64,000 bases of DNA, taken from Eledone cirrhosa (lineage: Eukaryota). A model generated the notes under the pieces. It did not search any database and was not told the origin of the DNA. It worked only from the letters and a program-made list of their open reading frames with translations. Below are positions 2,989 to 64,000 of the stretch, in pieces. Made by a program: the position numbers and the translations under genes. The DNA lies in assembly GCA_964016885.1 (NCBI GenBank), contig OZ024747.1:74276001-74340000 (forward strand), written 5' to 3'. The stretch's first letter is position 1. Each line of letters begins with the position of its first letter.

Positions 2989-3062
2989 GAATCAAGTGGA
3001 ATCACGAGTTCATGTAAGAAGATATGACTACTATCACGTAAGATCCACCTGGAATATTGCAG
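2989..3062 (+). other. Candidate host exon (74 nt), identity unknown
   Basis: Long polypyrimidine tract plus TAG acceptor, CAG|GTACGT donor, one open frame NQVESRVHVRRYDYYHVRSTWNIA. Confidence 0.3.
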
Positions 3063-5544
3063 GTACGTACATTTTCTCATCCTTACATTCTACTAACCAG
3101 TGCTATTAAATCCAATGAAATATTTACTGCAATATTTCTTCTATTCAACTGCCGAATTTATTTCTTCTATTCAACTGCCGAATTTAACAACAGAAAATGT
3201 TATGCGTTAATATATATATCTGGTTTTTCAATATCCTACAATTTTATTTTACAAAGTTGTTCATACAAAAATAGAACACATTATTATTAAAGTTAAAAAA
3301 AGCTTCGATTCCCGCTGTCTCTGGTGAAAGTGTATTTTGGTTCTGTTTTCAATAACAATACTTCAGGAAGCATTTCTTTAAAAAAATGAGCTGAATTCAA
3401 TTCCATTATACTTAAATTTATTATGCAATGACTATTGTCGTCCATCCAACACGAGGCATCAAAGGAACATCTACATAGAAATTTTATCTGCTAGAAACAG
3501 CAGCCAAACTATTTTCCTGAATAAGAACGTAATGTCTTAAAACATATAATGGTGAAATGACGCTTTAAATAAGGCAGTGTTAAATAACTCTGAGAAGACC
3601 ATTGGTGTTAGGCTGATGGTCATTGGTCTACTCGATCAAGGTTGATCATAGTTTAAACAACAACAACATGGTCCAATTCGAACCAACGAGGAAATATATA
3701 TTGTACTCGAATATATGCCTGCATGTATGTTCCTTGACTCCTGGAGGAGTCGTAGAGGCACCGTATCGATATACGGCGTTTCTAGGACATTTCGTCAAAA
3801 ACCTGCTTGAGCCCATCTCCTCTCCAGACTTGAATGCAACACATTTCTCCCAAAGAAGAACAGAGAGGGAAAGAACAGAACTGAGAAACTGATATGGAGG
3901 AGGAATCGAAACCAGTATATGACTGGTAACTTTTTATCGACCTTGAGTGGATAAAAGGCTCATCCATAAATTAAAGTATCAATTATTTCGGAATACATGA
4001 TACATGTTCCTAGTTTCCGCCAATGCAATAATACTTTCTCAATATTTCTCACTCATTGACGAATTATATGACCAGGAATTATTAGATTCTTTACAACAAA
4101 TGCTAATTTAATGCTTCTTCTTCTTCTTCTTCTTGAGTCCTCCCTCTTTCGAGGGTGGTGCATTCATTTGGCTCTTTCTAACGGCTAGAATATACGCAGC
4201 TCGACACATCACAATCTATGATCCACGGAACCAAGGTTTAGTTCGATAAGGGTTATGTTTCACCATTTCTCAGATATTAGTCTCATCATAATTGACGTCT
4301 AATTTAAGAATAAGTTGTATTGATGCAATCACGTATGTTCTTCTTTTGTTATGGTTTTCTTTCGCCGTTTTGGGTTTTTTTTAGTTTTGCTGTTTTTAAT
4401 CACAAAGAGCCACTGTTGGTGTATATATATAGATATATACATATAAGGGTTGTATATTTTCCAATAATGAACGTGACGTCGCTTTTACCCCTATTCTTAC
4501 AGGGTTACATATTCTGTATTGGCTTCAACTAGGAATCGAAGACTTGTTACGAAATTTATCTGATGCGACTTTACCTTTACTCAATAATGAAAACCATTCT
4601 CTATTCATCTATATTGATTTTCCCTTTTAACATCCCATCAATTTCCATAAAAGAACATATTACTAGTCTTCAAAAAGATGAAAGGCAAAGCTGGCCGCCG
4701 ATGGGATTAGAGTTGCGAATTCAAAAGTTTGAGTTTGAGAGTTTTATTACATTCAATTCAGCTCTCTGCTATATCTAACCATTACACATGTTATATTAAT
4801 ATACCCTGAATACCTGACTACAAACTGATTTCTATTAACAGTTAACTTCTATATTCTACAAATGAAATTAATCTTAGTATTAATCTCATATCCCTGTTAT
4901 TCAGGTGTCTCACAAAACAGAGATCTTGTTGCAGGGAAATATTGCATTTTTTGTGAGCTTTTTTTCTGTTGCTACTTTTTCTCGTTTTACTCTTTCAGTT
5001 TTGTCTTTCATGTCTCTGAATTGACATAAAATCCCGTTGAACACTTCTATTATTACCTTTATTATACTTACCTATATTATATTGCATTTGTAATGAAACA
5101 ACTTTTCCCCAACAAAAGCTACAATTTATATATTTATGTCCTCTTCTTTTAGTATTGCTATATTTCCTTCATAGTGAGATAAAAAAAAACTGTTTTTTGC
5201 AAGTCATATTTAAGTGAAATATTCTGTAACAAGAAAACAATGGTTTTATTGTTATTGCATCGGAGAAAACTTTGCGATATTTTACAATCCACCGAAGTCA
5301 AATTTACTTTTCATCCTGCTAGGATCGATAACATAATTACCAGTCGATATAATCAATAATTCCCTCCCCCAAATATTTCTCGCCTTGTGCTTATGTAAGA
5401 TACTGTTATTGCAATGGGGTGTACGAAGGATTAATAAAATTGGAAGAGCAACCGACAAAATTACTTGCGCGCTTTAGTTGCTTTAGTTAACGTTCTGACT
5501 TGAAATCCCTCCGGGGTCGACTTTTCCTTTCATATTTAGAGATA

Positions 5545-16460: not shown

Positions 16461-19129
16461 TATTCTCTACAACAATACCAATAACATTAGTTCCTAACAT
16501 TAGCAGATTACAACAATTTGATAGAGAGTAAAGTTAGGGTAAAGTTAATTAAGAGCCATTATAAAATATTATGATTGAATAAATACAGAAAATTTGTCAA
16601 CATTGCCATACGCCCTCACTTATTTCATATAATACTGGGTATATTGAGTACAGTAGTACCCATTGAACAACACGATAATTTCCATAAGTAAATAATATAA
16701 AATAATTGCTATGAATAATACAACAATGCGCTGGGCCATGGGGTGGTGTAAAATATTATACAATAATGCTTTTTTTTTCTAAAATTACAAATAATGATTT
16801 CTAAAACTAATACAAGATTGTGTGGCTACTCTAGGTTACATGTATCTATGGTTCCGTAACTCCTGGGGTAGACGTACTGGAACCGTATTGACATACGGCA
16901 TTTCTAGGGCATATTTTTAAAATCTGGTGGAGCCCATCTCCTCTCCAGCTAGGAATACAGCAGATTTCTTCCAGAGAAGGATTGAGAGAATGGAAGTGAG
17001 AACAGAAAAGCCAATCCAATACAAACAGGTTCCTGTGAAATTTGAACTTGGAACGCTTAGATTCGGAACATATATCACAAGGTGTTTCCTCTACACCGCT
17101 AAAATCTCTGTCTGTACATTGGTATTTTGTTAACTCAGAATGGATGGAAAGAATTGACTTCGGTGTAACCTGAACTCAGATCGCAGAGTTAAATAAATGA
17201 AGTCTATCATACATAAAAGGTGACGAATTGGAAGAGTCGTTAGAAGGTAGAATAGAATTGTTTGCAGTGTAAGATCCGGCTCTGCTCTTTGGGTTCAAGT
17301 ACCGCTGAGGTTAACTCTGATTTTCATCCATTCCAAGTTGATAAATTAAGTATCAATCTAGTACTGGGGTCGATTCTTCCGCTATGTCTCATTCTCACTT
17401 TCTTTCTTTCACTTTCTATCCTTCTATGGAAGAATTCTGTTCAGGCCTGGAACCACTGGGGCTGGTGAAAGTAGTAACGAAGTCATTCAACTAAGTCAAA
17501 GTACCAAGTAACAGATATAGCATACGCTATTCAGTATTAGTTACTCTCTTTGTATAAATATTTCTCTTTCGTTTGTTGTTCGTTCTCTGTATGATCTGTA
17601 GTTCTGTGGGGCGTGGGGTAATATTTATTGAGATAGAAGAAGCCCCGAGTAGTGAAAAGGCTGAAAACCAGTTCTTTAGTTATATATTATTCTCCGATCT
17701 CACCATTTTGAATTAATATAATACATTGCTTGTATATGACATGATATGAGAAAACTAAAGATGTGGCGTCATGTTAAATAATTTTAGTTTCGTCCAATCA
17801 AAGAAGATTTTGTTGAAGTTGTAGACAAACGAATTGAATGATAATTGATTCCGGTTCAGTTTGAATATTACAGAGTATAGATAGTAACCGGAAGAGTGTG
17901 AAAAGTAGAGGTGGAAGAGATATATCACTGCTTAAGGGTGGGTCGTCATTGATATCAATCAATTATCGATTTTCGTGAAATAAAAATAAAAATTATACCA
18001 CCATTAATGTGTTCAGTTATCGATTACTACAATAGTATCCTCACAATACAGTATTTCTGAACATAAGCTTCTTTAACCACAACTGTCTGTGTGTAGGATT
18101 TTTACTCTACACCCGTTACTCCTGAGGGAATCGTTCGGGTGCCATATTGAAATACGGCGTTTCTAAGGCATTTTAAAACTCATTTAAGGGAACAAATAAA
18201 GGAAATGGAAAGCAATAAAAGAAAAAAGAATCAATTAAGGAAAGAAAGGGAGAAGGGAACTGACACAACACCCCATTCTAAGCGATGCCTCAGCCGCAGA
18301 GATTGGTAAGAGACAGGCTATCGACAGCCATACTATCTCACAGGGCTTCCTCCATGTTTTATGATAGCTGTGACTGTGAAAATCAGTTTAGTCGTCAGAA
18401 ATTTTACTTATTTACGTCCCTTTACCTTCTGAGTTCAAATTCTTGCCCAAGTCAACTTATCTTTTCATTCTTCTGTTGTCAGTAAAATAAAGAACCACAA
18501 ATATAAACTGGACATTTACACAGTTAACTCAACTCGAACTTTGCCCCAGCATGGTTACTATCTAATGACTGGAATCGGTAGATTATTAAAGAAAGGTACA
18601 TACATACCTATTCGCTATTACTCAAACACGAACACATACACAATTTTAAATAGTGTTTATTCACAGATGAATTCTTACATTTTCAAATACGAGAATATTT
18701 TCCTTCTCATGAATAACAAGAGAAAACTACAAACAACGAAATAAAAATATACTAAAAGTATTTACATTGAATCGAATCGGATTAATATATTTTCTCAAAA
18801 TGTAACAGTAAAAACAACAAAAAATTGAAAAGCAAAACAAGAAATTCACTAGTTTCATTCGCATAATTCTGATAGTACAAAAATCGTGAAGATTTGCACA
18901 AATTTCTGTGGTTTCTATTTAGTAAGAGCTTCAAAAGCAAGATAAACAAAATACCGGCATTATTATTTGGTCGGGATGTTTGCTGAGAATTCTTACGGCT
19001 ACCAAATATCTTGCACTCGATCAGATAAACTCGCGTGGTATTTCTTTGACTTCACATCTTTAACAACGAGAAAAAATATATAAAAGTAAACTGTGTCCTG
19101 CACACATATGCATACATACGTTTACATAT

Positions 19130-19211
<82 letters not shown>

Positions 19212-19238
19212 CTATATATGTGTGTATTCATACATACG

Positions 19239-19286
<48 letters not shown>

Positions 19287-19287
19287 A

Positions 19288-19318
<31 letters not shown>

Positions 19319-19547
19319 CGTACATATGTGTGTGTGTGTGTGTGTGTGTGGTATACACACACGAAAGTGTGTGTCGATAGTAACGTTCCGGTATCAGTGG
19401 AAAGAACCGCGTTGCTTTGATAAATTTGCTTGCTAAAGATTACCTTTAGGAAAATCTTAGAATTTTTTTACTTTTAACGATTTTCTGATGTATTTATAAA
19501 TTGGGGTTTCTGGTGAAATCCATTGACCTTTTTACTTACTATAGTAC

Positions 19548-19632
<85 letters not shown>

Positions 19633-19749
19633 AGGAAATTGTAGTTTACTTGAAGCATTGCGCAGTGAGATATAAACGTTTGGAGTTAGAAGGCCAGAAC
19701 AATGTTGGTATGGATATAGAATATAAATACAATTGCATTTATTTGAATA

Positions 19750-19790
19750 TCGTTAATTTTCGAGATAATGTCTCTTCTTCAGAGGGACGT
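19750..19790 (-). ncRNA. Degenerate minimal hammerhead in the PLE 3' repeat
   Basis: CTGAAGA-A-GAGA(CATTA)TCTC-GAAA; stem I is not intact. Confidence 0.55.
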
Positions 19791-20250
19791 AAAGGGGTTA
19801 ATCCAGTGTTCTAATTAGCTTGCCAAGTCATGCTGACAGGAAATAGTATAGAAATTCCATTCTATTTCTAAAGTCAAAGAGTGAAGGTTAGGTGGATAAA
19901 GGGGTTATCTCCCTTTAAAAGTGTTTGTACATGTATGTCTAAGTGTGTGTGTGCGTGTGTGAGTGTGTGAATGTGAGAGGATATGTTTATATGTAAATGT
20001 GGGGGCTAGATGCTCTATCATGTTAAAACTGGTCTATGTGTGTGTGTGAGAGAATAAGTGAAGGTGTAAGCGTGCGTGTGTCTGTGCGTGTGTGTGTGAG
20101 ATGGTGCGTGGCGGTGTAAGTGTGGGTCTACATGCTCTATCATGTTAAACATTGGTTGTTGAGTTCTAGTCTGTTATTGATTGGTGGTTGTGTTTTGTCT
20201 ATAATTAGTGCTTCTTTAATTCTAAGATTGCCGAGCTTTCTTTCCTTAGC

Positions 20251-21523
20251 TTCTATCCTATCTATCTATCTAGGGAGGGTAAAATTCCCGAGATCCATGG
20301 ACGAGATCTCTCCAGCGGTCTCTGTCCTTCATTATCGCTGCCATGTCCTGCGTCTCCAACAGACCAGTGTCTGTCCTTAGGGCATCAACATACGTTAACC
20401 TTGGTCTTCCTCTTCCAGTGTGTATATGTAGGTGCTCCACAGGAGCACTGAGTGCAATGTCAACTCTGGATGTCGGTGAGCATGTCCAGCTAACCTCAAT
20501 CTCGTCTGTGTCACTTTTGAGCTGACCTTTGGGAGGCTCCCATACAGCTCTGAGTTATTCATCCTCAGTGTATACTGAGGAATTTATTTGCACACATTTC
20601 TGTGGTCTCTATTTAGTAAGAGCTTCAAAAGCAGGATAAACAAAATACCGGCATTATTATTTGGTCGTGATGTTTGCTGAGAGTTCTTACGGCTACCAAA
20701 TATCTTGCATTCGATCAGATAAACTCGCGTGGTATTTCTTTTACTTCACATCTTTAACAACGTGAAAACATATATAAAAATATATGATGAAGACCTTACA
20801 GGCTTATGGAATCCCCAAGAAGATAGTGGACCTGATATCACTGCTCTACACCAACACCAAAGCCCAAATCATTACACCTGATGGGATGACATAGTTCTTT
20901 GAAATACTGTCTGGAGTGCTCCAGGGAGATACATTGGCTCCCGACCTTTTTATCATCGTAGTGGACTATTGAATGCGCCTTGCACTGGAGAAACACCAGG
21001 ACTCTGGCTTTACTGTAGTACCGGCTCAGAGCAGGAGAGTTAAGGCGAAAAAGGTATCAGATGCTGAATTTGCCGACGACATAGTTTTGGTGACACATAC
21101 AGTGAAGGAGGCAGATGATTTGATGCGGGAGGTTGAGACTGTGTCGATGAGTGTGGGGCTGTGAATGAATGAGACTAAAACAAAATATCTGGTAGAGAAT
21201 GTTGAGAAGCCAGAGGGGATCACTAATGTAGGCGGGAAGCCGCTAGAATTGGTTGAGGGCTTCCTGTATTTGGGAGCAAAGATTGGGAATACGAAAGATG
21301 ATGTGGTTGAGAGGAAGAGCAAAGCCTGGGCGTCGTGCCACAGCTTCAGATCGGTGTGGAAGTCGGACCGTCGTAAAGACCTTAAAATCCGCCTCTTCAT
21401 TGCTGTAGTGGAGTCTGTGCTGCTGTACGGGTCTGAGACTTGGACACTGACCAAGAAACTCACTCAGGTGGTGGATTTGTGCTACACGAGAATGTTGAGG
21501 ATGGCTCTGAACATTCTATCCTA
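20251..21523 (-). mobile_element. RTE-clade LINE insertion with 5' inversion and 10-bp TSD
   Basis: TSD TTCTATCCTA at 20251-20260 and 21514-21523; (TAGA)n tail; - strand 20568-20270 gives MNNSELYGSLPKV..LRLAGHAHRHPE..GRGRPRLTYVD. Confidence 0.9.
20784..21513 (+). pseudogene. RTE reverse transcriptase fragment (inverted segment), three in-frame stops
   Basis: GVLQGDTLAP, FADD, FLYLG and ESVLLYGSETWTL motifs in one frame. Confidence 0.92.
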
Positions 21524-22299
21524 ACTATTATGGTTTTGTCGGTGTTTTTGCATTTCACTAGGTGTTTCTTAAATGAGGAAGCGTTATTGTTGAGGTGTTC
21601 TTTTATTCTAATGTGAAGTGGTCTGGTGGTGCTACCCATGTAGAAATTGCTGCATTTGTCGCACTCTAATCTGTATACGACGTAAGCCTGGTGGCATAGG
21701 TCTGTGTCGTCGATGGGGCAGTTTGCTAGCCTGCAGCGGCTGTCATGTCTGGTGGAGTGTCTTTTGGTTAGCTGTCCACGTAGAGAAGGTCCTGAGTGGG
21801 CTAGCTGGATATCTAGTCCCTCTCGTCTGATAGCTCTGCGGATGGCTGTTGTTGTTTCGTCACTGAAGTGTGGGAGCTTCAGGAAGCAGGTGTTTGTGCC
21901 TCGGGTGTGGTGTACTCTGTTGTTTCTGGCACGGTTCGCGGTGGGCGTCGAGTATCCGTTCAGTTTAAGTACTTCCAGGAAATGTGTGGCGTGTGTGTCC
22001 CGGTCTCTTGCGTCGGTGCATTTGTTCTGGATACGTGTAGTTCGTTCCTTATGTATCCGAACTTAGCGCTGACTTGGAGGGCTGATCTGAAATGTACGAA
22101 CAGGTCCCTGCTGGCGGCTTTTTTTATAGAAGCAGGTGTGGATGTCGCCTTCCTCTGTTACCCTGAGTTGGAAGTCCAATGGGGAAAGGGATCCGCGATC
22201 ATCGGGGTGTTCCATGCTGAACTTTATATTGGTGGCCATGCTGGAGAATGTCATGTATATTTTATCTGCTTCTATATATATATATCTCTATATATATAT

Positions 22300-22370
22300 A
22301 TAGGAAAAATTCAGGACCCCAACGGCTGAGCTCCGGCTGCTTCAACAGGTAGATCCGAACTACCTGTTAA
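22300..22370 (-). mobile_element. Tiny pLTR fragment with fold-back end, same family as 25113-27446
   Basis: GACCCCAACGGCTGAGCTC matches 25205-25223; AACAGGTAG/CTACCTGTT hairpin; within (TA)n. Confidence 0.7.
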
Positions 22371-22380
22371 ATATATATGT

Positions 22381-22460
<80 letters not shown>

Positions 22461-23199
22461 GCGTGTATAAAAATATATATATTAATTACAGACAGTTGTG
22501 CTACACTTGTAAGAGTTCCGCATATCTTCAATTCCACCAGGTGAAATGTAAAACCTGTCGTGTAAATGGTAAAATGAATCAGTTATTGAAATAATATAAG
22601 AATTCTTTCTCTTTATTGATTCCGAAATTGGGTATAAAAGAAAGTTCCATAGATGAATCGTGTAGCTAGGAAAGAAGGTGGTTTGCTGAATTATTCATTT
22701 TCAGTTAGTTTCCGACAATAGAAGATCTGCTTCCGTTTTCATACACATACAATAAGAATTTCCTCAGTCGAAAGTTGGCATTATTTTACTTCTGTAGCTT
22801 CTGCTAGTGAATTCTTCTACGTGTGTCTCTTTACAGAAGGTTGTGGCTTACTAATATTTTCCTGATTGACGTGAATGACTATTGCAATAGAAGAAACCAT
22901 TCTATGCTTCCTTTGCATTTGAAAACACAGTTGGATGTAAATATTAGTGTACGATACTGATATCTGAGAAGAGATTTAACTAATTTCATATATGAGTCTG
23001 TTTTGTTGCTGTACTTTTATATATATGTTGTAAAGTGAAGTGGTCTAATAATATTTATTTTAAATATCAGAATGTCTAAAATGTCGTTTTATTGGTTGTA
23101 AGACTGTGAAGAGGTAGACGGTACATCCTACACTGTTCTCTGAATGGAAATCAATAATTGGGTGTTTTCTTACATAAAATAAACGCAATGTGCCCTAAC

Positions 23200-25301: not shown

Positions 25302-25534
25302 AATTCCATATATGGTAAAAAAGTGATTGTCACAAGGATTGATCAAAAGTTTGTTGTTAAGATATATGATTCTATTATGGCATTTTGTGGAAGGTAGGGA
25401 TAGCTGAACTTGCCAGTAGAAGAAGGAGGGAGAGGGAGAGGAGGAAACCCAGTCAAGCGTTGAAACTGAAATCTATACAACAGTGGCTTCCGGGAGAAAA
25501 TATCCTATTATCTAGCTTCCATTAGCGGAACCAG

Positions 25535-26281
25535 CAGGCGACACCGCCGCTCAAGCAACGTAACGTGGTTCAATCCTACCCACAATGCTGAGGTGACAAC
25601 ACCTATCGGGAAAATCTTCTTTAGGCTCATCGAAAAACATTTTCCACTACAACACCGCTACCACAACATAATCAACAAAAACACCATCAAACTCTCCTAC
25701 AGCACCACACCTAACTTTGCACAAAACATCGTCTCCTCTATCAACAAAAAACTCAGCCCCTATGGAAGAAATAACCTAGACAGCAGTGGAGAGCCGACCA
25801 GGAGGTGTAACTGCCTAATGGATCCCTTTGCCCCCTCAACAACAGATGCCGAGATCGTAATGTAATCTACCAGTGCAACGTGAGGACGGACACCTCCAAC
25901 AAAGCTTATATAGGATTAACCGCTTGTGACTTCAAGACCCGGCTCTACCTACACAGACATACTTTCCGAAACCCGGCCCGGCGTCACGCCACTACACTTT
26001 CGGACAACATCTGGGACCACAAAGATAATAATATAACCTACAATCTCACTTGGAGCTTACTGTCCAGAGCCAACTCTTACACGGGAGGACGCCGTCCGTG
26101 TAACTTATGCTCGGAGGAAACAATACAAATGTTGTTTTCGACGGACCAACTCCTAAACAAGAAAGACGAACTGGTAACTGCATGCAAACACAGATTGCGT
26201 AGGACTTACCTCGCCCTCAAACCCCATAATGACCCGGGGGGTAGACAAGGGCTGAAACAGCCCCACTTGCCGACTTTGTAA
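25535..26281 (+). pseudogene. PLE linker plus GIY-YIG endonuclease, frameshifted
   Basis: WFNP..KLSYS..CNC, then NVIY..KAYIGLT..FKTR..H..TTLS..IW..CNLCSEE..LLNKKDEL. Confidence 0.88.
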
Positions 26282-28924: not shown

Positions 28925-30045
28925 CAGTGATGATGGTGCTGTTGTTGCTGCTGCTGGTTATGGTGCTGCTGATTATGGTGCTGCTGCTGCTGGTTATGGT
29001 GCTGCTGATTATGGTGCTGCTGCTGGTTATGGTGCTGTTGTTGCTGCTACTGGTGGTGAGGGTGCTGTTGTTGCTGCTACTGGTGGTGATGGTGCTGTTG
29101 TTGCTGCTACTAGTGGTGATGGTGCTGTTGTTGCTGCTACTGGTGGTGATGGTGCTGTTGTTGCTGTGTTACTGGTGATGGTGCTGTTGTTGCTGCTACT
29201 GGTGGTGACGGTGCTGCTGTTGCTGCTACTGGTAGTGACGGTGCTGCTGTTGCTGCTACTGGTGGTGATGGTGCTGTTGTTGCTGCTACTGGTGGTGATG
29301 GTGCTGTTGTTGCTGTTACTGGTGGTGATGGTGCTGTTGTTGCTGCTACTGGTGGTGACGGTGCTGTTGTTGCTGCTACCGGTGGTGATGGTGCTGTTGT
29401 TGTTGCTACTGGTGGTGACGGTGCTGCTGTTGCTGCTACTGGTAGTGACGGTGCTGCTGTTGCTGCTACTGGTGGTGATGGTGCTGTTGTTGCTGCTACT
29501 GGTGGTGATGGTGCTGTTGTTGCTGCTACTGGTGGTGGTGGTGCTGTTGTTGCTGCTACTGGTGGTGATGGTGCTGTTGTTGCTGTGTTACTGGTGATGG
29601 TGCTGTTGTTGCTGCTACTGGTGGTGGTGGTGCTGTTGTTGCTGCTACTGGTGGTGACGGTGCTGTTGTTGCTGCTACTGGTGGTGACGGTGCTGCTGTT
29701 GCTGCTACTGGTGGTGATGGTGCTGTTGTTGCTGCTACTGGTGGTGATGGTGCTGTTGTTGCTGCTACTGGTGGTGACGGTGCTGTTGTTGCTGCTACTG
29801 GTGGTGATGGTGCTGTTGTTGCTGCTACTGGTGGTGATGGTGCTGTTGTTGCTGCTACTGGTGGTGATGGTGCTGTTGTTGCTGTGTTACTGGTGATGGT
29901 GCTGTTGTTGCTGCTACTGGTGGTGACGGTGCTGCTGTTGCTGCTACTGGTGGCGATGGTGCTGTTGTTGCTGCTACTGGTGGCGATGGTGCTGTTGTTG
30001 CTGCTACTGGTGGTGGTGGGTTGTTGTTGTTGTTGTTGTTGTTGC
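28925..30045. repeat. 30-bp minisatellite GGTGATGGTGCTGTTGTTGCTGCTACTGGT, about 33 units
   Basis: Direct; three 29-bp variant units at ~29163, ~29582 and ~29881 shift the frame. Confidence 0.95.
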
Positions 30046-40980: not shown

Positions 40981-41317
40981 GTAGGTGGGGTTTCCAAATT
41001 CAGCTACATTCAGCTACATTGCAATAAATTGTCTCCTTTACATTTTGGGTTTACAACTGGTCACATGAACAATATCTTCTACAAAAACAAAAAGAAAGTA
41101 TTGATCGACAAGATTGTGGGCCTTCGGAGCAGAGTATGATAATATGGAAAACGAAGAATCAGCGATTGCATGTGTTTTTACCTTTATGATTTTTTGTCTT
41201 TAATTTTCCTGTGTTTACTCCCCCCTCCCTACGTGTTTCTGTTTCATTTTCCTTCCCCGTCTCTGCCTATCCTTCGCACTCACTCCTTCGTTCACTCCAC
41301 CCCGCCCAACGCCCACC

Positions 41318-44097
41318 ATGCCCAGCCTGAGATCCTTTCTCCACCAACTACATAATCGCCTCAAACTTTTCCTCACCCCCCCCCCCCTCCTCCCACCCTG
41401 CTATCTCCCCTCTGCCCTTCAACTTTCCTACCTTCTCTTCGCCAAAACCCGGCACTCCAGCCACATCCATTTCCTCAGCCACTGCCTCCGCCTCCACCTT
41501 ATCCCCCTCGGCTTCCGTCTACACTTTCACCCTTCCCCCGCCGCTTCCCCCTCCACGCAACGTATCCTCACCCGATCCTCACGCCTCCTGATGCGCAACT
41601 CCATCCGCGCCTCCCGTTCCACCCTCCGCCAACTTGACCACCAACTGATCCCCACCCTCCTCCGCCTTAACTCCACCTGCCACCCCCTCCTCGCCCAAGC
41701 CATCCTCTCCTTCATCCAAAACCTCAACCACAACCTCTTCTCCTTCCTCAGCTCCACCAAAGCCCGCAAGCTACACTCACTCCTCCCAACCACCCCCATC
41801 CACCACCATACGCCCACCACTCTCCACCTCTCCCTCGACCCACACCCCTACCCAATCTCCACCCTCCACCTCACCCCTCACCCCCCCAAACACCCAAACC
41901 CCACCAATTGTTGTCACCATACCCCCTGACCTCCCCCTCTCCGCACCTGAGCGCTCACTCCTTAGTAGAGGCCTTTGCTTCATACCCCACACTCCGCACA
42001 GCGACGAGTTCCGCACCCGAACGGAAGTCGAGCGATTCGTGCGACGCACTAAGTTACAGGCACATTTCGGCCGAACGCCACCGGCTCCGGACGCCCCAGA
42101 CCCGTTTCTCGCCCTGGGCCGACGACCATCTTCTTGGACGCCGGCCCCAGGGCAATTTAGCACCCTGGACGCCTTCGTCGATGCCAGCCGTAGCGCAGTA
42201 AATCGTTTCGACTTCCGCCACCGTTCCAAACGGTACAATATCTCACGGGGCGAACTCCTCGCTCTCCGCTCCCTCCGTAGCCGAGATGACAACGTCATCA
42301 AACCGGCGGACAAGGGAGGCGCCGTAGTGGTGTGGCGCGCGGACGTCTACACAGCCGAAGCCATCAGGCAGCTCTGTAACCCCTCTTCTACCGCCCTCTA
42401 CCCTCCGATCCCACCCCCTCTACCAACAACAAGTCTCCTCCACCATCAAAGACCTTATCGCCTCCTCCCTTCTCCCCCCACCGCTTCCCACCTCATCGTC
42501 CGCACCCCCCGCACCCCCACCATCTACTTCCTCCCCAAACTCCACAAACCCGACAACCCGGCCGCCCCATCGTCTCCGCTTGCAACTGCCCCACCGAACT
42601 CATCTCCGCCTTTCTCGACTCCATCCTCACCTCCCTTGTCACCACCCTCCCCTCCCACATCTCCGACACCAACCACGCCCTGCGCCTTTTCGACTCCTTC
42701 ACCTACCCACCCGGCCCACAGCCCTTCCTCTTCACCCTAGACATCAAGTCCCTCTATACCGTCATCCCCCACGCCGACGGCCTACGCGCCCTCAAACACT
42801 ACCTCGACCTTCGCCCCTCCCCCATTCCCTCCACCCCCACCTTCCTTCGCCTCACCGAGCTGGTCCTCACCCTGAATTGTTTCTCCTTCTCGGGTGAGTT
42901 TTACCAACAGGTCACGGGGGTAGCCATGGGTACAAGAATGGGCCCGAACTATGCCAACCTTTTTGTTGACCATGTTGAAGCCCAAATCTTTGCCCAGTAC
43001 ACCGGCCCCACGCCCGAACTGTACGGTCGTTACATTGACGACTGTATCGGAGCCACGACCCTCACCCGAGAACAGCTCGACTCCTTTCTCTCCTTCTTCT
43101 GCTCCTTCCACCCCTCCCTCCACATCACCACCTCTATCTCCACCACCCACGTCCACTTCTTAGACATCTCCGTCGCCTTCGACCCCTCCCACCACTCCCT
43201 CGTCACCTCCGCCTTCTTCAAACCCACCGACTCCCACTCTTACCTCGACTTCACCTCTTCCCACCCCACCGACACTAAACACTCCATTCCCTACTCCCAA
43301 CTTCTCAGGATCCGCCGCCTCTGTAGCCGAGATGCTGACTTTGAGTCCCAGGCCCTTTCCCTAGTCAGCCATTTCATCCGCAGAGGTTACCCCCTCTCTC
43401 GTCCACACCGCTCTCACCCGCGGCCGTGCTGTCCCCCGCTCCACCACCCTCACCCCACGCCACCGCACACCCACCCACCGTCTCCCCTTCCCCATCACCT
43501 ACCACCCCTCCACCTTACCCCTCCACCGCACCATCCGCCGCCTCTTCCGACGCCTCCAGTCCGACCCCTCCACCTCCCACATCTTCCCAACCCCACCACT
43601 CCCCTCCTTCAAACGCGCACGCAATCTCCGCACCCTCCTCGTCCACAGCTCCCTACCCCCCAACCCACGCTCTGTACCCCCCCCCCCCGGTTCCTTTCCC
43701 TGTTCTAGGCCCCGCTGCAACACCTGTCCCCACATCACCAACACCACCACCTTCCAGGGTCCCAACGGCCACTCTCTCTCTGTCCGGCATGCCTTCCGCT
43801 GCACCTCCTCCAACCCAGTCTACGGGGTTGGAGGAGGTGCAGCGGGACGTCGGACAGACGGGACGTCGCCTGGCGGACCGATTCACTGAGCACCTCCGGG
43901 ATATTCGTCTCGGGGGTAGTTCCCCCATCGCCTGCCACTTTGGTGGCCCTGGACATTCCGCACGCCATCTCACAGTCTGTGGGCTACTCCAGTGCCACGG
44001 AACACCCGCCAATCGCCTTAGAGTCGAACAACGAACTATCTTCATCTTACAGACCCACACTCGCCCCGGTCTGAACTCCCCACCCTTATTCCTTTAG
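41318..44097 (+). pseudogene. PLE reverse transcriptase/GIY-YIG polyprotein, frameshifted
   Basis: IKPADKGG, YFLPKLHK, LDIKSLYT, GVAMGTRMGPNYANLF, RYIDD, FLDI, KPTDSHSYL, CSRPRCNTC, GQTGRRLADRFTEH, PGLN. Confidence 0.95.
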
Positions 44098-48228: not shown

Positions 48229-48238
48229 CTTACTACTA

Positions 48239-48273
<35 letters not shown>

Positions 48274-48359
48274 ATTACTACTGCTGCTGCTGCTGCTACT
48301 ACTACTACTACTATTCCTGCTTCTACTACTACTGCACCTACTACTACTACTACTACTGG

Positions 48360-48396
<37 letters not shown>

Positions 48397-48520
48397 GCTG
48401 CTGCTACTGCCGCTGTTGCTTCTGTTGTTGTTGCTGCTGCAACTACTACTATTACTACTGCTGCTGGTACTACTACTACTACAACTACTACTATTACTGC
48501 TGCTGCTGCTACTACTACTA

Positions 48521-48557
<37 letters not shown>

Positions 48558-48559
48558 AG

Positions 48560-48593
<34 letters not shown>

Positions 48594-48609
48594 GACGACG
48601 ACGACGACG

Positions 48610-48659
<50 letters not shown>

Positions 48660-48690
48660 AGCTACTACTACTACTACTACTACGACGACG

Positions 48691-48750
<60 letters not shown>

Positions 48751-50100
48751 GTTGTTGTTGTTGCTGGAGCTGTCTCTCTCATCATGTCTGCTGTCGTCAC
48801 TGCCACTACACTTCCTCCTCCCCTTACTGCTACCATTCTCACTCTTCCTACTCTCACTACCACACATATTGCTGCTGCTGCTGCTGCTGCTCCTGCTACT
48901 GCTGCTACCGCTACTGCTGCTACTGCTGTTACTGCTACTGCTGCTACTGCTGTTGTTACTGCTGCTGTTACTGCTACTGTTGCTACTGCTGTTGTTACTG
49001 CTGCTACTGCTGCTGTTATTGCTATTGCTACCACTTCTGCTACTGCTGCTACTGCTACTGCTGCTGCTGCTGTTGTTACTGCTGCTGTTACTGCTACTGC
49101 TACTGCTACTGCTGCTGCTGCTACTGCTGCTACTGCTACTGCTGCTACTGCTACTGCTGCTACTGCTACTGCTGCTATTACTGCTGCTACTGCTACTCCT
49201 ACTGCTGCTACTGCTGTTGTTACTGCTGCTGTTACTGCTACTGCTACTGCTACTGCTGCTACTGCTGCTACTGCTACTGCTACTGCTGCTACTGCTGCTG
49301 TTATTGCTGCTACTGCTACTCCTACTGCTGCTACTGCTACTACTGCTACTGCTACTGCTGCTACTGCTGCTGTTACTGCTGCTACTGCTACTCCTACTGC
49401 TGCTACTGCTACTGCTGCTACTGCTACTGCTGCTACTGCTGCTGTTACTGCTGCTACTGCTACTGCTGCTACTGCTACTGCTGCTACTGCTGTTGTTACT
49501 GCTGTTGTTACTGCTACTGCTACTGCTGCTACTGCTACTGCTGCTACTGCTGTTGTTACTGCTGCTGTTACTGCTACTGCTACTGCTACTGCTGCTACTG
49601 CTACTACTGCTACTGCTGTTCTTACTGCTACTTCTACCGCTGCTGCTGCTGTTACTGCTGCTGCTACTGCTACCACTGCTGCTACTGCCACTGCTGCTAC
49701 CACTTCTGCTACTGCTACTGTTGCTGCTGCCACTGCTGTTACTGCTACTGCTACCACTGTTGCTGCTGTTACTGCCACTGCTACCACTTCTGCTACTGCT
49801 ACTGCCACTGCTACCACTTCTGCTACTACTACTGCCACTGCTACCACTGCTGCTACTACATATGTTGCTACCACTGTTGCTGCTGTTACTGCCACTGCTA
49901 CCACTTCTGCTACTACTACTGCCACTGCTACCACTTCTGCTACTACTACTGCCACTGCTACCACTGCTGCTACTACATATGTTGCTACCACTGTTGCTGC
50001 TGTTACTGCCACTGCTACCACTTCTGCTACTACTACTGCCACTGCTACCACTGCTGCTACTACTACTGCCACTGCTACCACTGCTGCTACTACATATATT
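48229..50100. repeat. Compound trinucleotide array (ACT/GCT/GTT) grading into longer units
   Basis: Direct; no frameshift over ~1.9 kb. Confidence 0.95.
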
Positions 50101-51099
50101 GCTATCACTGACATCATAGAAATATGTTTCATTGAACTTTATTAATTATCACTTCGCTCGTCTTTGTTTTTATCTTCTCCAACACTGTTGTTGCTGTTGT
50201 TGTCGCTCTTCTTCTTCTTCTTCTTCTTCTTCTTCTCCTCCTCCTCCTCTCATGTAGTTGCTGTAGTTGCTGTAGTTGCTGTAGTTGTATGGAACATACA
50301 ACTCACAAACGAAATGAGTAAACAATAGCAAAATCAAAAATAATTACGCATGCCACAATTCTGGACGACGTTCGAATTTCAGAGGCCTTGCATGTTGTTT
50401 TTATTATCCGGGTGCCCTTAGAAGTGCAGGGTAGTTCAGGATTGGTGGGGACCTGAGTCACCCCTGGGTAATACTCCCCCACCCTCTAGGGGAATTTATT
50501 TTGTTATATTTATGCATAGTTTATTTTATATTTTTTAATATCTTCATTGTTAAAATAGTCTTGCCATTGTGCACTTTTACTCGAGCTTATTGTAAACCCG
50601 CACTGTCCCTGTCTTTGTATTGTTCCCTCCATGTCGGCCCTTGTGGCCAATAAATGAAATCATTATTATTATTATTATTATAGTTGCATTATCTTGCTTT
50701 ATGTTCATACGAGTTATCACCAAGTCACAACCAGTGACCTCAAGAGACAACAAGGTCCGCCATGTTCAAGAAAGAACATACATACACACACATGCATATT
50801 TAGGTGTTTAGATGTACTTATATTGACAGAATCTTCCTTAGTATATTGGCAGTTCCCATTAGTACTATCTTTTGTAGTTCTCCTATACGCGGGTTTCCTG
50901 GGATTTGCGATAAGTAATCATTAGACCCCTTAGGTATCATTCCTAGAGCGCCTACAAACACTGGTATTGTTTTAGTTCTCAATTTCCACAATTATTATTA
51001 TTATTATTATTATTATTGCTTTAGGGTGGTGAATTGGCAATAATCGACAAAGGGTCGGAGATGCTTTGCGGCATATATTTACGTACCTTTACGTTCTGA

Positions 51100-55704: not shown

Positions 55705-58292
55705 CATACCACCACACTATACTACAGCCAGCTCTACCACTAGCATAGACCACCACACTTTACTACAGCCAGCTCTACCACTAGCATAGACCACCACACT
55801 ATATTACAGCCAGCTCTACCACTATCATAGACCACCACACTATACTACAGCCAGCTCTACCACTAGCATAGACCACCACACTTTACTACAGCCAGCTCTA
55901 CCACTAGCATAGACCACCACACTATACTACAGCCAGCTCTACCACTATCATAGACCACCACACTATACTACAGCCAGCTCTACCACTATCATAGACCACC
56001 ACACTATACTACAGCCAGCTCTACCACTATCATAGACCACCACACTATACTACAGCCAGCTCTACAACTAGCATAGACCACCACACTATACTACAGCCAG
56101 CTCTACCACTATCATAGACCACCACACTATACTACAGCCAGCTCTACAACTAGCATAGACCACCACACTATACTACAGCCAGCTCTACCACTATCATAGA
56201 CCACCACACTATACTACAGCCAGCTCTACCACTATCATTGACCACCACACTATACTACAGCCAGCTCTACCACTATCATAGACCACCACACTATACTATA
56301 GCCAGTTTTACCACTATCATTGACTACCACACTACACTATAGCCATCTCTACCACTATCAGAGACCACCACACTACACTATAGCCAGTTCTACAACTATC
56401 ATAGACCACCACACTATACTATAGCCAGTTCTACCACTATCATAGACCACCACACTACACTATAGCCAGTTCTACAACTATCATAGACCACCACACAACA
56501 CTATAGCCAACTCTACCACTATCATAGACTACCACACTACACTATAGCCAACTATACCACTATCAGAGACCACCACACTACACTATAGCCAGTTCTACAA
56601 CTATAATAGACCACCACACTACACTATAGCCAACTCTACCACTATAACAGACCACCACACTATACTATAGCCAGTTCTACAACTATCATAGACCACCACA
56701 CTATACTATAGCCAGTTCTACAACTATCATAGACCACCACACTACACTATAGCCAGCTCTACCACTATCATAGACCACCATACTATACTATAGCCAACTC
56801 TACACTATGAGAGACCACCACACTACACTATAGCCAGTTCTACCACTATCAGAGACCACCACACTACACTATAGCCAGTTCTACAACTATCATAGACCAC
56901 CACACTACACTATAGCCAGCTCTACCACTATCATAGACCACCACACTACACTATAGCCAACTCTACCACTATCAGAGACCACCACACTATAATATAGCCA
57001 GTTCTACCACTATCATAGACCACCACACTATACTATAGCCAGCTCTACCACTATCATAGACCACCACACTACACTATAGCCAGTTCTACCACTATCATAG
57101 ACCACCACACTGCACTATAGCGAGTTCTACCACTATCAGAGACCACCACACTACACTATAGCCAGCTCTACCACTATCATAGACCACCACACTACACTAT
57201 AGCCAACTCTACCACTATCAGAGACCACCACACTATAATATAGCCAGTTCTACCACTATCATAGACCATCACACTATACTATAGCCAGCTCTACCACTAT
57301 CATAGACCACCACACTACACCATAGCCAGTTCTACCACTATCATAGACCACCACACTGCACTATAGCCAGTTCTACCACTATCATAGACCACCACACTAT
57401 ACTATAGCCAGCTCTACCACTATCATAGACCACCACACTACACTATAGCCAACTCTACCACTATCAGAGACCACCACACTACACTATAGCCAACTCTACC
57501 ACTATCAGAGACCACCACACTATAATATAGCCAGTTCTACCACTATCATAGACCATCACACTATACTATAGCCAGCTCTACCACTATCATAGACCACCAC
57601 ACTGCACTATAGCCAGTTCTACCACTATCATAGACCACCACACTATACTATAGCCAGCTCTTCCACTATCATAGACCACCACACTACACTATAGCCAACT
57701 CTACCACTATCAGAGACCACCACACTACACTATAGCCAACTCTACACTATCAGAGACTACCACACTATACTATAGCCAGCTCTACCACTATCAGAGACTA
57801 CCACACTATACTATAGCCAGCTCTACCACTATCATAGACCACCACAGTATACTATAGCCAACTCTACCACTATCAGAGACCACCACACTATAATATAGCC
57901 AGTTCTACCACTATCATAGACCACCACACTATACTATAGCCAGCTCTACCACTATCATAGACCACCACACTACACTATAGCCAGCTTTACCACTATCATA
58001 GACCACCACAGTATGCTATAGCCAACTCTACCACTATCATAGACCACCACACTACGCTATAGCCAACTCTACCACTATCATAGACCACCACACTATACTA
58101 TAGCCAGTTCTACCACTATCATAGACCACCACAGTATGCTATAGCCAACTCTACCACTATCATAGACCACCACACTACACTATAGCCAACTCTACCACTA
58201 TCATAGACCACCACACTACACTATAGCCAACTCTACCACTATCATAGACCACCACACTATACTATAGCCAACTCTACCACTATCATAGACCA
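55705..58292. repeat. 41-bp minisatellite ACCACTATCATAGACCACCACACTATACTA(C/T)AGCCAGCTCT, about 63 units
   Basis: Direct. Confidence 0.95.
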
Positions 58293-58329
58293 CAACTACC
58301 ACTGTTGCCTTCATATGCTAAGATGTTAC

Positions 58330-59277: not shown

Positions 59278-62200
59278 ATGTGGGACTGTATCTGCAGGTT
59301 TTTGTGTACGTTTGTTGGTGTGAACGTGTTTATAAATGCCACTACCACCACCACTGCCACTACGGTAACCACTACCACCACCACTGCCACTACAACCGCT
59401 ACTGTAACCACTACCACCACCACTGCCACTACAACCACTACTGTAACCACTACCACCACCACTGCCACTACAACCACTACTGTAACCACTACCACCACTA
59501 CTGTCACTACAACCGCTACTGTAACCACTACAACCACCACTGCCACTACAACCACTACCGTAACCACTACCACCACCACTGCCACTACAACCACTATTGC
59601 TACCACTACCACCACCACTGCCACTACAACCACTACTGTAACCACTACCACCACCACTGCCACTACAACCGCTACTGTAACCACTACCACCACCACTGCC
59701 ACTACAACCGCTACTGTAACCACTACCACCACCACTGCCACTACAACCACTACTGTAACCACTACCACCACCACTGCCACTACAACCACTATTGCTACCA
59801 CTACAACCACCACTGCCACTACAACCGCTACTGTAACCACTACCACCACCACTGCCACTACAACCACTACTGTAACCACTACCACCACCACTGCCACTAC
59901 AACCACTACTGTAACCACTACCACCACCACTGCCACTACAACCACTATTGCTACCGCTACCACCACCACTGCCACTACAACCACTACTGTAACCACTACC
60001 ACCACCACTGCCACTACAACAACTACTGTAACCACTACCACCACCACTGCCACTACAACCACTATTGCTACCACTACAACCACCACTGCCACTACAACCG
60101 CTACTGTAACCACTACCACCACCACTGCCACTACAACCACTACTGTAACCACTACCACCACCACTGCCACTACAACCACTACTGTAACCACTACCACCAC
60201 CACTGCCACTACAACCGCTACTGTAACCACTACCACCACCACTGCCACTACAACCGCTACTGTAACCACTACCACCACCACTGCCACTACAACCACTATT
60301 GCTACCACTACAACCACCACTGCCACTACAACCACTACTGTAACCACCACAACCACCACTGCCACTACAACCACTACTGTAACCACTACATCCACCACTG
60401 CCACTACAACCACTACTGTAACCACTACCACCTCTACTGCCACTACAACCACTACTGTAACCACTACCACCACCACTGCCACTACAACCGCTACTGTAAC
60501 CACTACAACCACCACTGCCACTACAACCACTACTGTAACCACTACAACCACCACTGCCACTACAACCACTACTGTAACCACTACCACCACCACCGCCACT
60601 ACAACCACTACTATAACCACTACAACCACCACTGCCACTACAACCACTACTGTAACCACTACCACCACTACTGCCACTACAACCACTACTGTAACCACTA
60701 CAACCAACACTGCCACTACAACCACTACTGTAACCACTACCACCACCACTGCCACTACAACCGCTACTGTAACCACTACCACCACCACTGCCACTACAAC
60801 CGCTACTGTAACCACTACCACCACCACTGCCACTACAACAACTACTGTAACCACTACCACCACCACTGCCACTACAACAACTACTGTAACCACTACCACC
60901 ACCACTGCCACTACAACCACTATTGCTACCACTACAACCACCACTGCCATTACAACCACTACCGTAACCACTACCACCACCACTGCCACTACAACCGCTA
61001 CTGTAACCACTACCACCACCACTGCCACTACAACCACTACTGTAACCACTACCACCACCACTGCCACTACAACCACTACTGTAACCACTACCACCACCAC
61101 TGCCACTACAACCACTATTGCTACCACTACCACCACCACTGCCACTACAACCACTACTGTAACCACTACCACCACCACTGCCACTACAACCACTACTGTA
61201 ACCACTACCACCACCACTGCCACTACAACCACTATTGCTACCACTACAACCACCACTGCCACTACAACCACTACTGTAACCACTACCACCACCACTGCCA
61301 CTACAACCACTACTGTAACCACTACCACCACCACTGCCACTACAACCACTATTGCTACCACTACCACCACCACTGCCACTACAACCACTACTGTAACCAC
61401 TACCACCACCACTGCCACTACAACCACTACTGTAACCACTACCACCACCACTGCCACTACAACCACTATTGCTACCACTACCACCACCACTGCCACTACA
61501 ACCACTACTGTAACCACTACCACCACCACTGCCACTACAACCACTACTGTAACCACTACCACCACCACTGCCACTACAACCACTATTGCTACCACTACCT
61601 CCACCACTGCCACTACAACCACTATTGCTACCACTACAACCACCACTGCCACTACAACCACTATTGCTACCACTACCTCCACCACTGCCACTACAACCAC
61701 TATTGCTACCACTACAACCACCACTGCCACTACAACCACTATTGCTACCACTACCACCACCACTGCCACTACAACCGCTACTGTAACCACTACCACCACC
61801 ACTGCCACTACAACCACTATTGCTACCACTACCACCACCACTGCCACTACGGCCACTACTGTAACCACTACCACCACCACTGCCACTACAACCACTACTG
61901 TAACCACTACCACCACCACTGCCACTACAACCACTACTGTAACCACTACCACCACCACTGCCACTACAACCACTATTGCTACCACTACCTCCACCATTGC
62001 CACTACAACCGCTACTGTAACCACTACCACCACCACTGCCACTACAACCGCTACTGTAACCACTACCACCACCACTGCCACTACAACCACTATTGCTACC
62101 ACTACAACCACCACTGCCACTACAACCACTACTGTAACCACTACCACCTCTACTGCCACTACAACCACTACTGTAACGACTACCACCACCACTGCCACTA

Positions 62201-64000
62201 CAACCACTACTGTAACCACTACCACCACCACTGCCACTACAACCGCTACTGTAACCACTACAACCACCACTGCCACTACAACCACTACTGTAACCACTAC
62301 AACCACCACTGCCACTACAACCGCTACTGTAACCACTACCACCACCACTGCCACTACAACCACTACTGTAACCACTACAACCACCACTGCCACTACAACC
62401 ACTACTGTAACCACTACCACCACCACCGCCACTACAACCACTACTGTAACCACTACCACCACCACTGCCACTACAACCGCTACTGTAACCACTACCACCA
62501 CCACTGCCACTACAACCGCTACTGTAACCACTACCACCACCACTGCCACTACAACCGCTACTGTAACCACTACCACCACCACTGCCACTACAACCACTAC
62601 TGTAACCACTACAACCACCACTGCCACTACAACCACTACTGTAACCACTACCACCACCACCGCCACTACAACCACTACTGTAACCACTACCACCACCACT
62701 GCCACTACAACCGCTACTGTAACCACTACCACCACCACTGCCACTACAACCACTACTGTAACCACTACCACCACCACTGCCACTACAACCGCTACTGTAA
62801 CCACTACCACCACCACTGCCACTACAACCGCTACTGTAACCACTACCACCTCTACTGCCACTACAACCACTATTGCTACCACTACAACCACCACTGCCAC
62901 TACAACCACTACTGTAACCACTACCACCACCACTGCCACTACAACCACTATTGCTACCACTACCACCACCACTGCCACTACAACCACTACTGTAACCACT
63001 ACAACCACCACTGCCACTACAACCGCTACTGTAACCACTACAACCACCACTGCCACTACAACCACTACTGTAACCATTACCACCACCACTGCCACTACAA
63101 CCACTACTGTAACCACTACCACCACCACTGCCACTACAACCACTATTGCTACCACTACAACCACCACTGCCACTACAACCACTACTGTAACCACTACCAC
63201 CACCACTGCCACTACAACCGCTACTGTAACCACTACCACCACCACTGCCACTACAACCGCTACTGTAACCACTACCACCACCACTGCCACTACAACCGCT
63301 ACTGTAACCACTACCACCACCACTGCCACTACAACCACTACTGTAACCACTACAACCACCACTGCCACTACAACCACTACTGTAACCACTACCACCACCA
63401 CCGCCACTACAACCACTACTGTAACCACTACCACCACCACTGCCACTACAACCGCTACTGTAACCACTACCACCACCACTGCCACTACAACCACTACTGT
63501 AACCACTACCACCACCACTGCCACTACAACCGCTACTGTAACCACTACCACCACCACTGCCACTACAACCGCTACTGTAACCACTACCACCTCTACTGCC
63601 ACTACAACCACTATTGCTACCACTACAACCACCACTGCCACTACAACCACTACTGTAACCACTACCACCACCACTGCCACTACAACCACTATTGCTACCA
63701 CTACCACCACCACTGCCACTACAACCACTACTGTAACCACTACAACCACCACTGCCACTACAACCGCTACTGTAACCACTACAACCACCACTGCCACTAC
63801 AACCACTACTGTAACCATTACCACCACCACTGCCACTACAACCACTACTGTAACCACTACCACCACCACTGCCACTACAACCACTATTGCTACCACTACA
63901 ACCACCACTGCCACTACAACCACTACTGTAACCACTACCACCACCACTGCCACTACAACCACTACTGTAACCATTACCACCACCACTGCCACTACAACCA
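59278..64000 (+). CDS. Candidate secreted Thr-rich mucin-like protein (partial, no stop in window)
   Basis: ATG at 59278 gives MWDCICRFLCTFVGVNVFINA in frame with (VTTTTTTATTTTT)n; no stop or frameshift seen. Confidence 0.4.
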   Translation, partial: MWDCICRFLCTFVGVNVFINATTTTTATTVTTTTTTATTTATVTTTTTTATTTTTVTTTTTTATTTTTVTTTTTTVTTTATVTTTTTTATTTTTVTTTTTTATTTTIATTTTTTATTTTTVTTTTTTATTTATVTTTTTTATTTATVTTTTTTATTTTTVTTTTTTATTTTIATTTTTTATTTATVTTTTTTATTTTTVTTTTTTATTTTTVTTTTTTATTTTIATATTTTATTTTTVTTTTTTATTTTTVTTTTTTATTTTIATTTTTTATTTATVTTTTTTATTTTTVTTTTTTATTTTTVTTTTTTATTTATVTTTTTTATTTATVTTTTTTATTTTIATTTTTTATTTTTVTTTTTTATTTTTVTTTSTTATTTTTVTTTTSTATTTTTVTTTTTTATTTATVTTTTTTATTTTTVTTTTTTATTTTTVTTTTTTATTTTTITTTTTTATTTTTVTTTTTTATTTTTVTTTTNTATTTTTVTTTTTTATTTATVTTTTTTATTTATVTTTTTTATTTTTVTTTTTTATTTTTVTTTTTTATTTTIATTTTTTAITTTTVTTTTTTATTTATVTTTTTTATTTTTVTTTTTTATTTTTVTTTTTTATTTTIATTTTTTATTTTTVTTTTTTATTTTTVTTTTTTATTTTIATTTTTTATTTTTVTTTTTTATTTTTVTTTTTTATTTTIATTTTTTATTTTTVTTTTTTATTTTTVTTTTTTATTTTIATTTTTTATTTTTVTTTTTTATTTTTVTTTTTTATTTTIATTTSTTATTTTIATTTTTTATTTTIATTTSTTATTTTIATTTTTTATTTTIATTTTTTATTTATVTTTTTTATTTTIATTTTTTATTATTVTTTTTTATTTTTVTTTTTTATTTTTVTTTTTTATTTTIATTTSTIATTTATVTTTTTTATTTATVTTTTTTATTTTIATTTTTTATTTTTVTTTTSTATTTTTVTTTTTTATTTTTVTTTTTTATTTATVTTTTTTATTTTTVTTTTTTATTTATVTTTTTTATTTTTVTTTTTTATTTTTVTTTTTTATTTTTVTTTTTTATTTATVTTTTTTATTTATVTTTTTTATTTATVTTTTTTATTTTTVTTTTTTATTTTTVTTTTTTATTTTTVTTTTTTATTTATVTTTTTTATTTTTVTTTTTTATTTATVTTTTTTATTTATVTTTTSTATTTTIATTTTTTATTTTTVTTTTTTATTTTIATTTTTTATTTTTVTTTTTTATTTATVTTTTTTATTTTTVTITTTTATTTTTVTTTTTTATTTTIATTTTTTATTTTTVTTTTTTATTTATVTTTTTTATTTATVTTTTTTATTTATVTTTTTTATTTTTVTTTTTTATTTTTVTTTTTTATTTTTVTTTTTTATTTATVTTTTTTATTTTTVTTTTTTATTTATVTTTTTTATTTATVTTTTSTATTTTIATTTTTTATTTTTVTTTTTTATTTTIATTTTTTATTTTTVTTTTTTATTTATVTTTTTTATTTTTVTITTTTATTTTTVTTTTTTATTTTIATTTTTTATTTTTVTTTTTTATTTTTVTITTTTATTT
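59338..64000. repeat. 39-bp tandem array GTAACCACTACCACCACCACTGCCACTACAACCACTACT, about 119 units, runs off the window
   Basis: Direct. Confidence 0.97.

Follow-up and report, generated by a model that had tools for sequence, protein, structure and literature searches.

An RTE-like LINE with twin-priming geometry and a copy of nearby flanking DNA at its inversion junction in Eledone cirrhosa

Ostertag and Kazazian reportedly described twin-primed, 5'-inverted insertions of human L1 in 2001. Among germline L1 insertions of human and chimpanzee, 639 of 2068 (30.9%) are 5'-inverted (PMC2912911). In 5'-inverted L1 insertions the inverted segment has its 3' end right next to where the forward segment starts, with short stretches deleted or duplicated at the breakpoint and with microhomology at two places, the primer site and the inversion junction. 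In the available text of PMC4245944, 5' inversions were obtained with human L1 in human cells only, bar one insert of Nimb-2, and were tied to long overhangs (about 15 bp).

Small pieces of genomic DNA can also be duplicated when L1 integrates. Of 3,598 truncated somatic L1-solo insertions, 22 are cases of templated insertion, with inserts below 250 bp that have been ascribed to SDSA-like copying (bioRxiv 2024.08.27.596794), and foldback duplications of 52-220 bp have been described as well (PMC10191854). The templates typically lie within 15 bp of the insertion site or are folded back from the 5' flank. Break ends made by L1 have given rise to a 917-bp flank inversion and to hairpin-primed inverted duplications (bioRxiv 2024.12.14.628481), and R2 cDNA can snap back onto cDNA or onto nearby rDNA (PMC11371274). 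These last events invert or duplicate the flank beside the break.

For the RTE clade, the word inversion is absent from the main text of PMC9115989, which covers octopus RTEs, as far as that text was available, and the available portions of PMC6007223, PMC5389967, PMC4476161 and PMC13174262 hold no inversion data on RTE. We found no report of RTE twin priming or of captures from kilobase distances at inversion junctions in the literature searched, a scope outside which lies the direct survey of RTE junctions by Ichiyanagi and Okada (2008). L1 is already known for both twin priming and templated inserts; the novelty claimed here concerns RTE and is bounded by the literature searched. Here, we describe a LINE insertion in a window of 64,000 nucleotides of Eledone cirrhosa (the whole stretch analysed; contig OZ024747.1, positions 74,276,001 to 74,340,000) and a survey of its family in the same assembly.

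Structure and age of the insertion

The LINE in the window is a single-ORF, RTE-like element split into two opposed halves (Table 1). It is flanked by a target site duplication (TSD) of sequence TTCTATCCTA. Reads and contigs of the repeat that hosts the insertion join position 20250 straight to 21514, with exactly 10 letters in common, and this joint fixes the length of the TSD at 10 bp, the value that an earlier sequence-only reading of this DNA had given. The joint represents the pre-insertion sequence, and it probably comes from paralogues of the host repeat, not from an empty allele. We take this host repeat to be Penelope-like because of its domain order. No empty allele was found in the assembly, nor a second haplotype copy of the source described below.

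Alignment to a full-length copy of the family (L075) assigned the 3' segment to the minus strand and the 5' segment to the plus strand, as that reading had done. The only letters that separate the two half-ends in intact copies are AA, so that just 2 nt were lost at the breakpoint. The inverted segment overlaps the right TSD by 2 nt, its final TT being the initial TT of the duplication. The 3' end of the inverted part therefore adjoins the TSD and lies 2 nt, in element coordinates, from the start of the forward segment, while the internal primer has 2 nt of complementarity to the element. This is the geometry of twin priming to the base, as had been proposed from the letters. At the inversion junction itself we found no microhomology but a filler of 206 nt. 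The copy is dead and likely without function.

Table 1. Features of the insertion and its surroundings (positions in the window)
Feature	Position	Strand	Remarks
Template (source) of the captured piece	18892..19085	+	Tail-side DNA, unique and non-coding
Left (tail-side) TSD copy	20251..20260	.	CTA, its last 3 nt, agrees with the (TAGA)n tail
(TAGA)3 microsatellite tail	20261..20272	-	20270-20272 is also the ORF stop codon
3' segment of RTE-like LINE, element 2997-3306	20270..20578	-	Putative tail-primed cDNA product
Hairpin with 8-bp stem	20562..20581	+	5-bp stem is element-encoded; 20579-20581 (GGA) made at the junction
4-nt patch (ATTT)	20582..20585	+	Repeats the first 4 nt of the captured copy
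Direct copy of 18892-19085, 194 bp, 9 substitutions	20586..20779	+	At the inversion junction
5-nt patch (ATATA)	20780..20784	+	20776-20785 equals source 19072-19081
Inverted 5' segment (RT region, containing stop codons), element 2264-2994	20785..21515	+	Putative internally primed cDNA product
Right TSD copy	21514..21523	.	First 2 nt (TT) match the element; likely the base pairs of internal priming
Right part of high-copy host repeat, GIY-YIG (E 2.8e-5), target of the LINE	21524..22200	-	Left part from ~19650 to 20250

The filler consists, in this order, of GGA, ATTT, the 194-bp copy and ATATA. The sequence-only reading had pointed to a close copy of 18892-19085 and expected only two copies genome-wide. 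Nine of the 194 positions differ between copy and source, and a search that skips very common words found exactly these two places in the 3.0-Gb assembly, both with the copy as query and with a 626-bp stretch of the source region. On the tail side, 1166-1359 bp separate the source from the target site; the 1.7 kb quoted earlier holds as the present spacing between copy and source and not as the distance from the target. The source flank stays in place beside the insertion. A high-copy repeat is ruled out as the origin of the 194-bp piece by its presence in just two places, and an assembly duplication by the 9 substitutions. No TSD was found around the piece itself.

Both ends of the copy carry short patches. 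We found no other template for the ATTT patch within 17000-23000. The ATATA patch is consistent with a 10-nt slip on the source and has 1 nt (T) in common with the inverted segment; a slip being symmetric, either cDNA end may have primed the copying. Clear microhomology at the start of priming on the source was not found.

Where the filler meets the 3' segment is a hairpin (-7.7 kcal/mol, z -5.6) that had been noted before and interpreted as part of a fold-back joining. The hairpin is present, and most of it is encoded by the element: 20563-20578 belongs to the 3' segment, which accounts for 16 of the 18 nt first delimited. The 14-mer with the 5-bp stem occurs exactly in 44 of the 52 other copies listed (counted by eye), and it is preceded by TTAA in all 52 and by TTCC in the window copy. 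As this is native element sequence in other copies, a structure built at the junction is ruled out except for 3 nt, namely GGA (20579-20581), which alone extends the stem (chance about 1.3%, calculated post hoc). GGA is likely what a snap-back of the cDNA end on the element palindrome would add. Joining by fold-back was thus overstated, a 3-nt snap-back being the most that the hairpin would allow.

As in locally templated insertions, the nearby source has been kept in place and the copy appears to be as old as the insertion. Across the 1035 nt of the two element halves there are 29 private changes (2.8%), and copy and source differ by 9 changes against 10.9 expected if they were as old as the insertion (P = 0.35/0.76). 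The test is coarse (per-lineage 95% CI of 1.1-4.3% for the copy and 1.9-4.0% for the element). The matching ages fit a single event within these wide intervals. Together, the exact abutment, the unique source and the matching age support a capture at the time of insertion, in line with the local templated synthesis suggested earlier.

Read support for the right junction comes from one Logan contig (X2, record 11), which spans 20586-20824 with 6 differing letters and may derive from the assembled sample. No record crossing the left junction was seen among the reads and contigs compared. Depth over the 194-bp copy is zero in X1 and X3, which are contig data and so give no proof of absence.

The element family and its inversions

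The reference copy L075 is 3306 bp long (3.3 kb) and has an open frame of 1056 amino acids with the domains Exo_endo_phos_2 (APE endonuclease), RVT_1 and, below the cut-off, DUF6451, the single-ORF organization of RTE. Its first Met lies about 210 nt from the start and there is no ORF1, which agrees with the short 5' UTR of RTE elements, and a pattern search for a C-terminal CCHC knuckle was empty, as expected for this clade. The tail is made of (TAGA)n passing into (TA)n, with no poly(A); a microsatellite-like 3' tail is given as an RTE feature in the available part of PMC6007223. The TSDs measure 10 bp in the window copy and 10-12 bp in L118, L134, L157, L185, L189 and L203, the range at which RTE TSDs peak according to the portion of PMC4245944 at hand. 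The TSDs of most other copies cannot be scored because they sit in (TA)n. The homologues compared carry no clade names, and no named RTE was found among them. From its ORF, 5' UTR, tail and TSDs, we consider that the family likely belongs to the RTE clade. It differs from L1 in its single ORF, its (TAGA)n tail, its targets (mostly (TA)n) and its TSDs of 10-12 bp. Full-length copies of 3.3 kb are L075, L067, L069 and 8 of the 100 in the first sample described below. Since L075 has an open frame and is 98-99% identical to other copies, the family must have been active recently.

Two exact 30-mers of the element 3' end matched 6309 and 2078 places, which makes at least 8,387 exact-match copies. 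We classified the first 100 places in the longer list (sample 1) and, from the leading 100 in the shorter one, 60 (sample 2); both samples come from contig C1 only and were picked by position alone, and 20 of the 60 in sample 2 have just 1.5 kb of flank. Sample 1 contains 35 inverted, 57 truncated and 8 full-length copies, and sample 2 contains 15 inverted, 39 truncated and 1 full-length, plus 2 cut by the end of the locus and 3 unclassified. Leaving out these last 5 and two duplicated loci (L123 and L159), 49 of 153 position-sampled copies are 5'-inverted (32%, CI 25-40%), a rate like that of L1. In a separate, similarity-ranked set, 11 of 58 were inverted.

The breakpoints also resemble those of 5'-inverted L1. 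They lie within 30 nt of each other in 28 of the 49 inversions and comprise 28 deletions, 18 duplications and 3 exact joins. Microhomology was found at 38 of the inversion junctions; 4 are blunt and 7 have a filler (1, 1, 2, 4, 5, 12 and 98 nt). The internal priming site ends in AT or TA in 22 of 48 inversions (one cut copy dropped), against a null of 17% (p = 4e-6) that is a worst case, with alignments allowed to run into pure TA flank. Such an excess is expected if the ends of (TA)n targets pair with the RNA. An apparent 485-nt filler in L262 turned out to be a split alignment of an ordinary inversion.

The 98-nt filler belongs to L191 (G000:C1:91731099-91741028) and contains a second capture, in which 76 nt are an inverted copy of the flank. 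Its source lies 848-923 bp beyond the tail and is itself a repeat, but the filler has 99% identity to the local copy, whereas 38 others of the 40 family copies of that repeat that were scored reach at most 92%. A 10-nt patch at one end of this filler is the reverse complement of filler sequence. Captures among the position-sampled inversions thus amount to 1 of 49 (95% CI 0.05-11%), and junction capture is recurrent yet uncommon; with this count, the pattern of tail-side templates at about 1 kb rests on two cases. Extrapolation from the at least 8,387 exact-match copies gives roughly 2,700 inversions and tens of captures. Such a structure had been called seldom described for RTE elements, which fits our literature search, but inversion is common in this family and the capture has a parallel among these 49.

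No flank capture was found in the 11 inversions of the similarity-ranked set, in which L016 has a 17-nt filler and L004 an array of element pieces. We also scanned 400 bp upstream of the outer 5' junction in all 100 copies of sample 1. Of the 24 matches, six were inspected and five of these are flanking repeats or microsatellites, not captures. The sixth is the 5' junction of L196 (G000:C1:94043273-94053202), where ~20 nt of 5' flank recur in inverted form around a TA run, possibly a short foldback duplication like those of L1.

How the junction may have been formed

We regard it as probable, from the arrangement of the sequences, that twin priming made the opposed halves and that the cDNA ends were joined by repair synthesis on flank DNA 1.2-1.4 kb away, during the insertion. 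The target would have received staggered cuts 10 bp apart, as the TSD indicates. On the tail side, the 3' end would have annealed to the (UAGA)n tail, and the opposite end to an internal UU of the RNA; the matches are seen and the priming is presumed from them. The tail-primed cDNA ends 2 nt short of the internal primer, and the internal cDNA would end at element 2264, leaving two 3' ends that face each other across a double-strand break with no useful homology. The tail-primed end could then fold on the element-encoded 5-bp palindrome and gain GGA, and one of the cDNA ends would prime on the tail-side flank, copy 194 nt with small slips and be released, after which end joining would seal the junction. 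The simplest template would be the tail-side strand, if 5' resection over about 1.4 kb had exposed it in single-stranded form, and the copying may have been similar to that of Pol theta or SDSA. On such a resected arm, priming by the internal cDNA would yield a direct copy, as in the window, and folding back of the tail cDNA an inverted one, as in L191. The slip and snap-back patches at both filler ends argue for DNA-templated capture. However, the direct and inverted orientations need different primers under resection, and the self-inverted patch of L191 is more simply explained by synthesis on the strand that is not the overhang.

Compared with the described systems, these events share with L1 templated insertions and foldbacks the duplication, during integration, of less than 250 bp of non-element genomic DNA, for which an SDSA-like or DNA-polymerase origin has been proposed. 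Unlike in those, the templates lie 0.85-1.36 kb off, on the tail side, and the copy is inside the inversion junction. With the remodelling of L1 break ends and the snap-back of R2 they would share self-primed synthesis from 3' ends, and a flank reach of about 1 kb fits resection; unlike there, the flank is intact and a distant piece has been copied between two cDNA ends.

A different origin of the filler, likewise raised in the sequence-only reading, would be a template switch: the reverse transcriptase would leave the element RNA for a nascent host transcript over 18892-19085 and copy it before joining. Either cDNA could switch, so either orientation could arise, and there are precedents in the available text of two papers: one co-insertion of a local pre-mRNA reported for somatic L1 (PMC10191854) and U6 chimeras formed by template switching in RTE-clade elements (PMC4476161). 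Nevertheless, we find this unlikely. No host exon, nor any host gene near the insertion, is evident among ORFs of at least 110 aa in 1-45000 (which leaves room for small exons and for transcription), and both captures come from 0.85-1.36 kb of the break with slip patches made in several steps. Patches of this kind recall DNA repair polymerases.

The twin-primed insertion might also have come first, with a later double-strand break at the junction repaired from neighbouring DNA. Hairpins can be fragile, and the coarse age test would accommodate some delay; yet such a break could fall anywhere in 1.07 kb, whereas the filler sits exactly at the inversion junction with the 2-nt breakpoint of twin priming intact, and L191 has the same placement, so that a later break seems improbable. 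We give hardly any credence to the piece being an independent insertion of a small repeat or the junction an assembly error: a single contig crosses one junction only, but the two places genome-wide, the lack of a TSD around the piece, the 9 substitutions and the base-exact geometry all speak against it.

A broader proposal, for which we see about even chances, is that twin priming is not peculiar to mammalian L1. A single-ORF RTE of an invertebrate would undergo it in a third of its insertions, a recurring few per cent of the joins would be bridged with DNA from about 1 kb into the tail-side arm, and the family would constitute a fossil record of break resection and repair. Twin priming would then depend on general features (an early second-strand cut and AT-rich ends that pair easily with the RNA) and not on L1 proteins, as a non-L1 element with no ORF1 and with 10-12-bp TSDs inverts at an L1-like rate in an invertebrate. 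Junction captures bear on how the 5' end of a LINE is joined, and they would offer LINEs a way of duplicating unique DNA that needs no transduction. A single assembly holds thousands of copies over which the templates can be tallied by side, distance and orientation.

Other arrangements in the family and in the window

Some copies have unusual structures. In L106 (G000:C1:364850-374779) and L175 (G000:C1:81028680-81038609), two element 3' ends lie head to head, with element 3041-3306 or 3281-3306 inverted onto a longer copy; both were counted as truncated, not inverted. Since a (TA)n target is symmetric, it is plausible that the RNA tail served both target ends for priming. Minisatellite arrays of element pieces occur at 5' or inversion junctions in L004 (G000:C22:22771134-22774547; about 10 copies of 81 bp) and L040 (G000:C27:3059367-3062668; at least 13 copies of 109 bp). 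The inverted segments of L117, L118, L134, L016, L246 and L262 reach the first few bases of the element, and L117, L118, L134 and L262 are near-full-length elements in two opposed halves.

Elsewhere in the window, 25470-26281 and 41204-44097 contain more fragments of GIY-YIG/RT repeats, with long RT-like frames in 41649-43708; these fragments look Penelope-like. Long, strand-skewed tandem arrays occupy 28927-30029, 48231-50110, 55708-58293 and 59357-64000, with units of 30, 6/30, 41 and 39 bp, respectively, and some of them read as Thr/Ala-rich open frames, either satellite or mucin-like exon.
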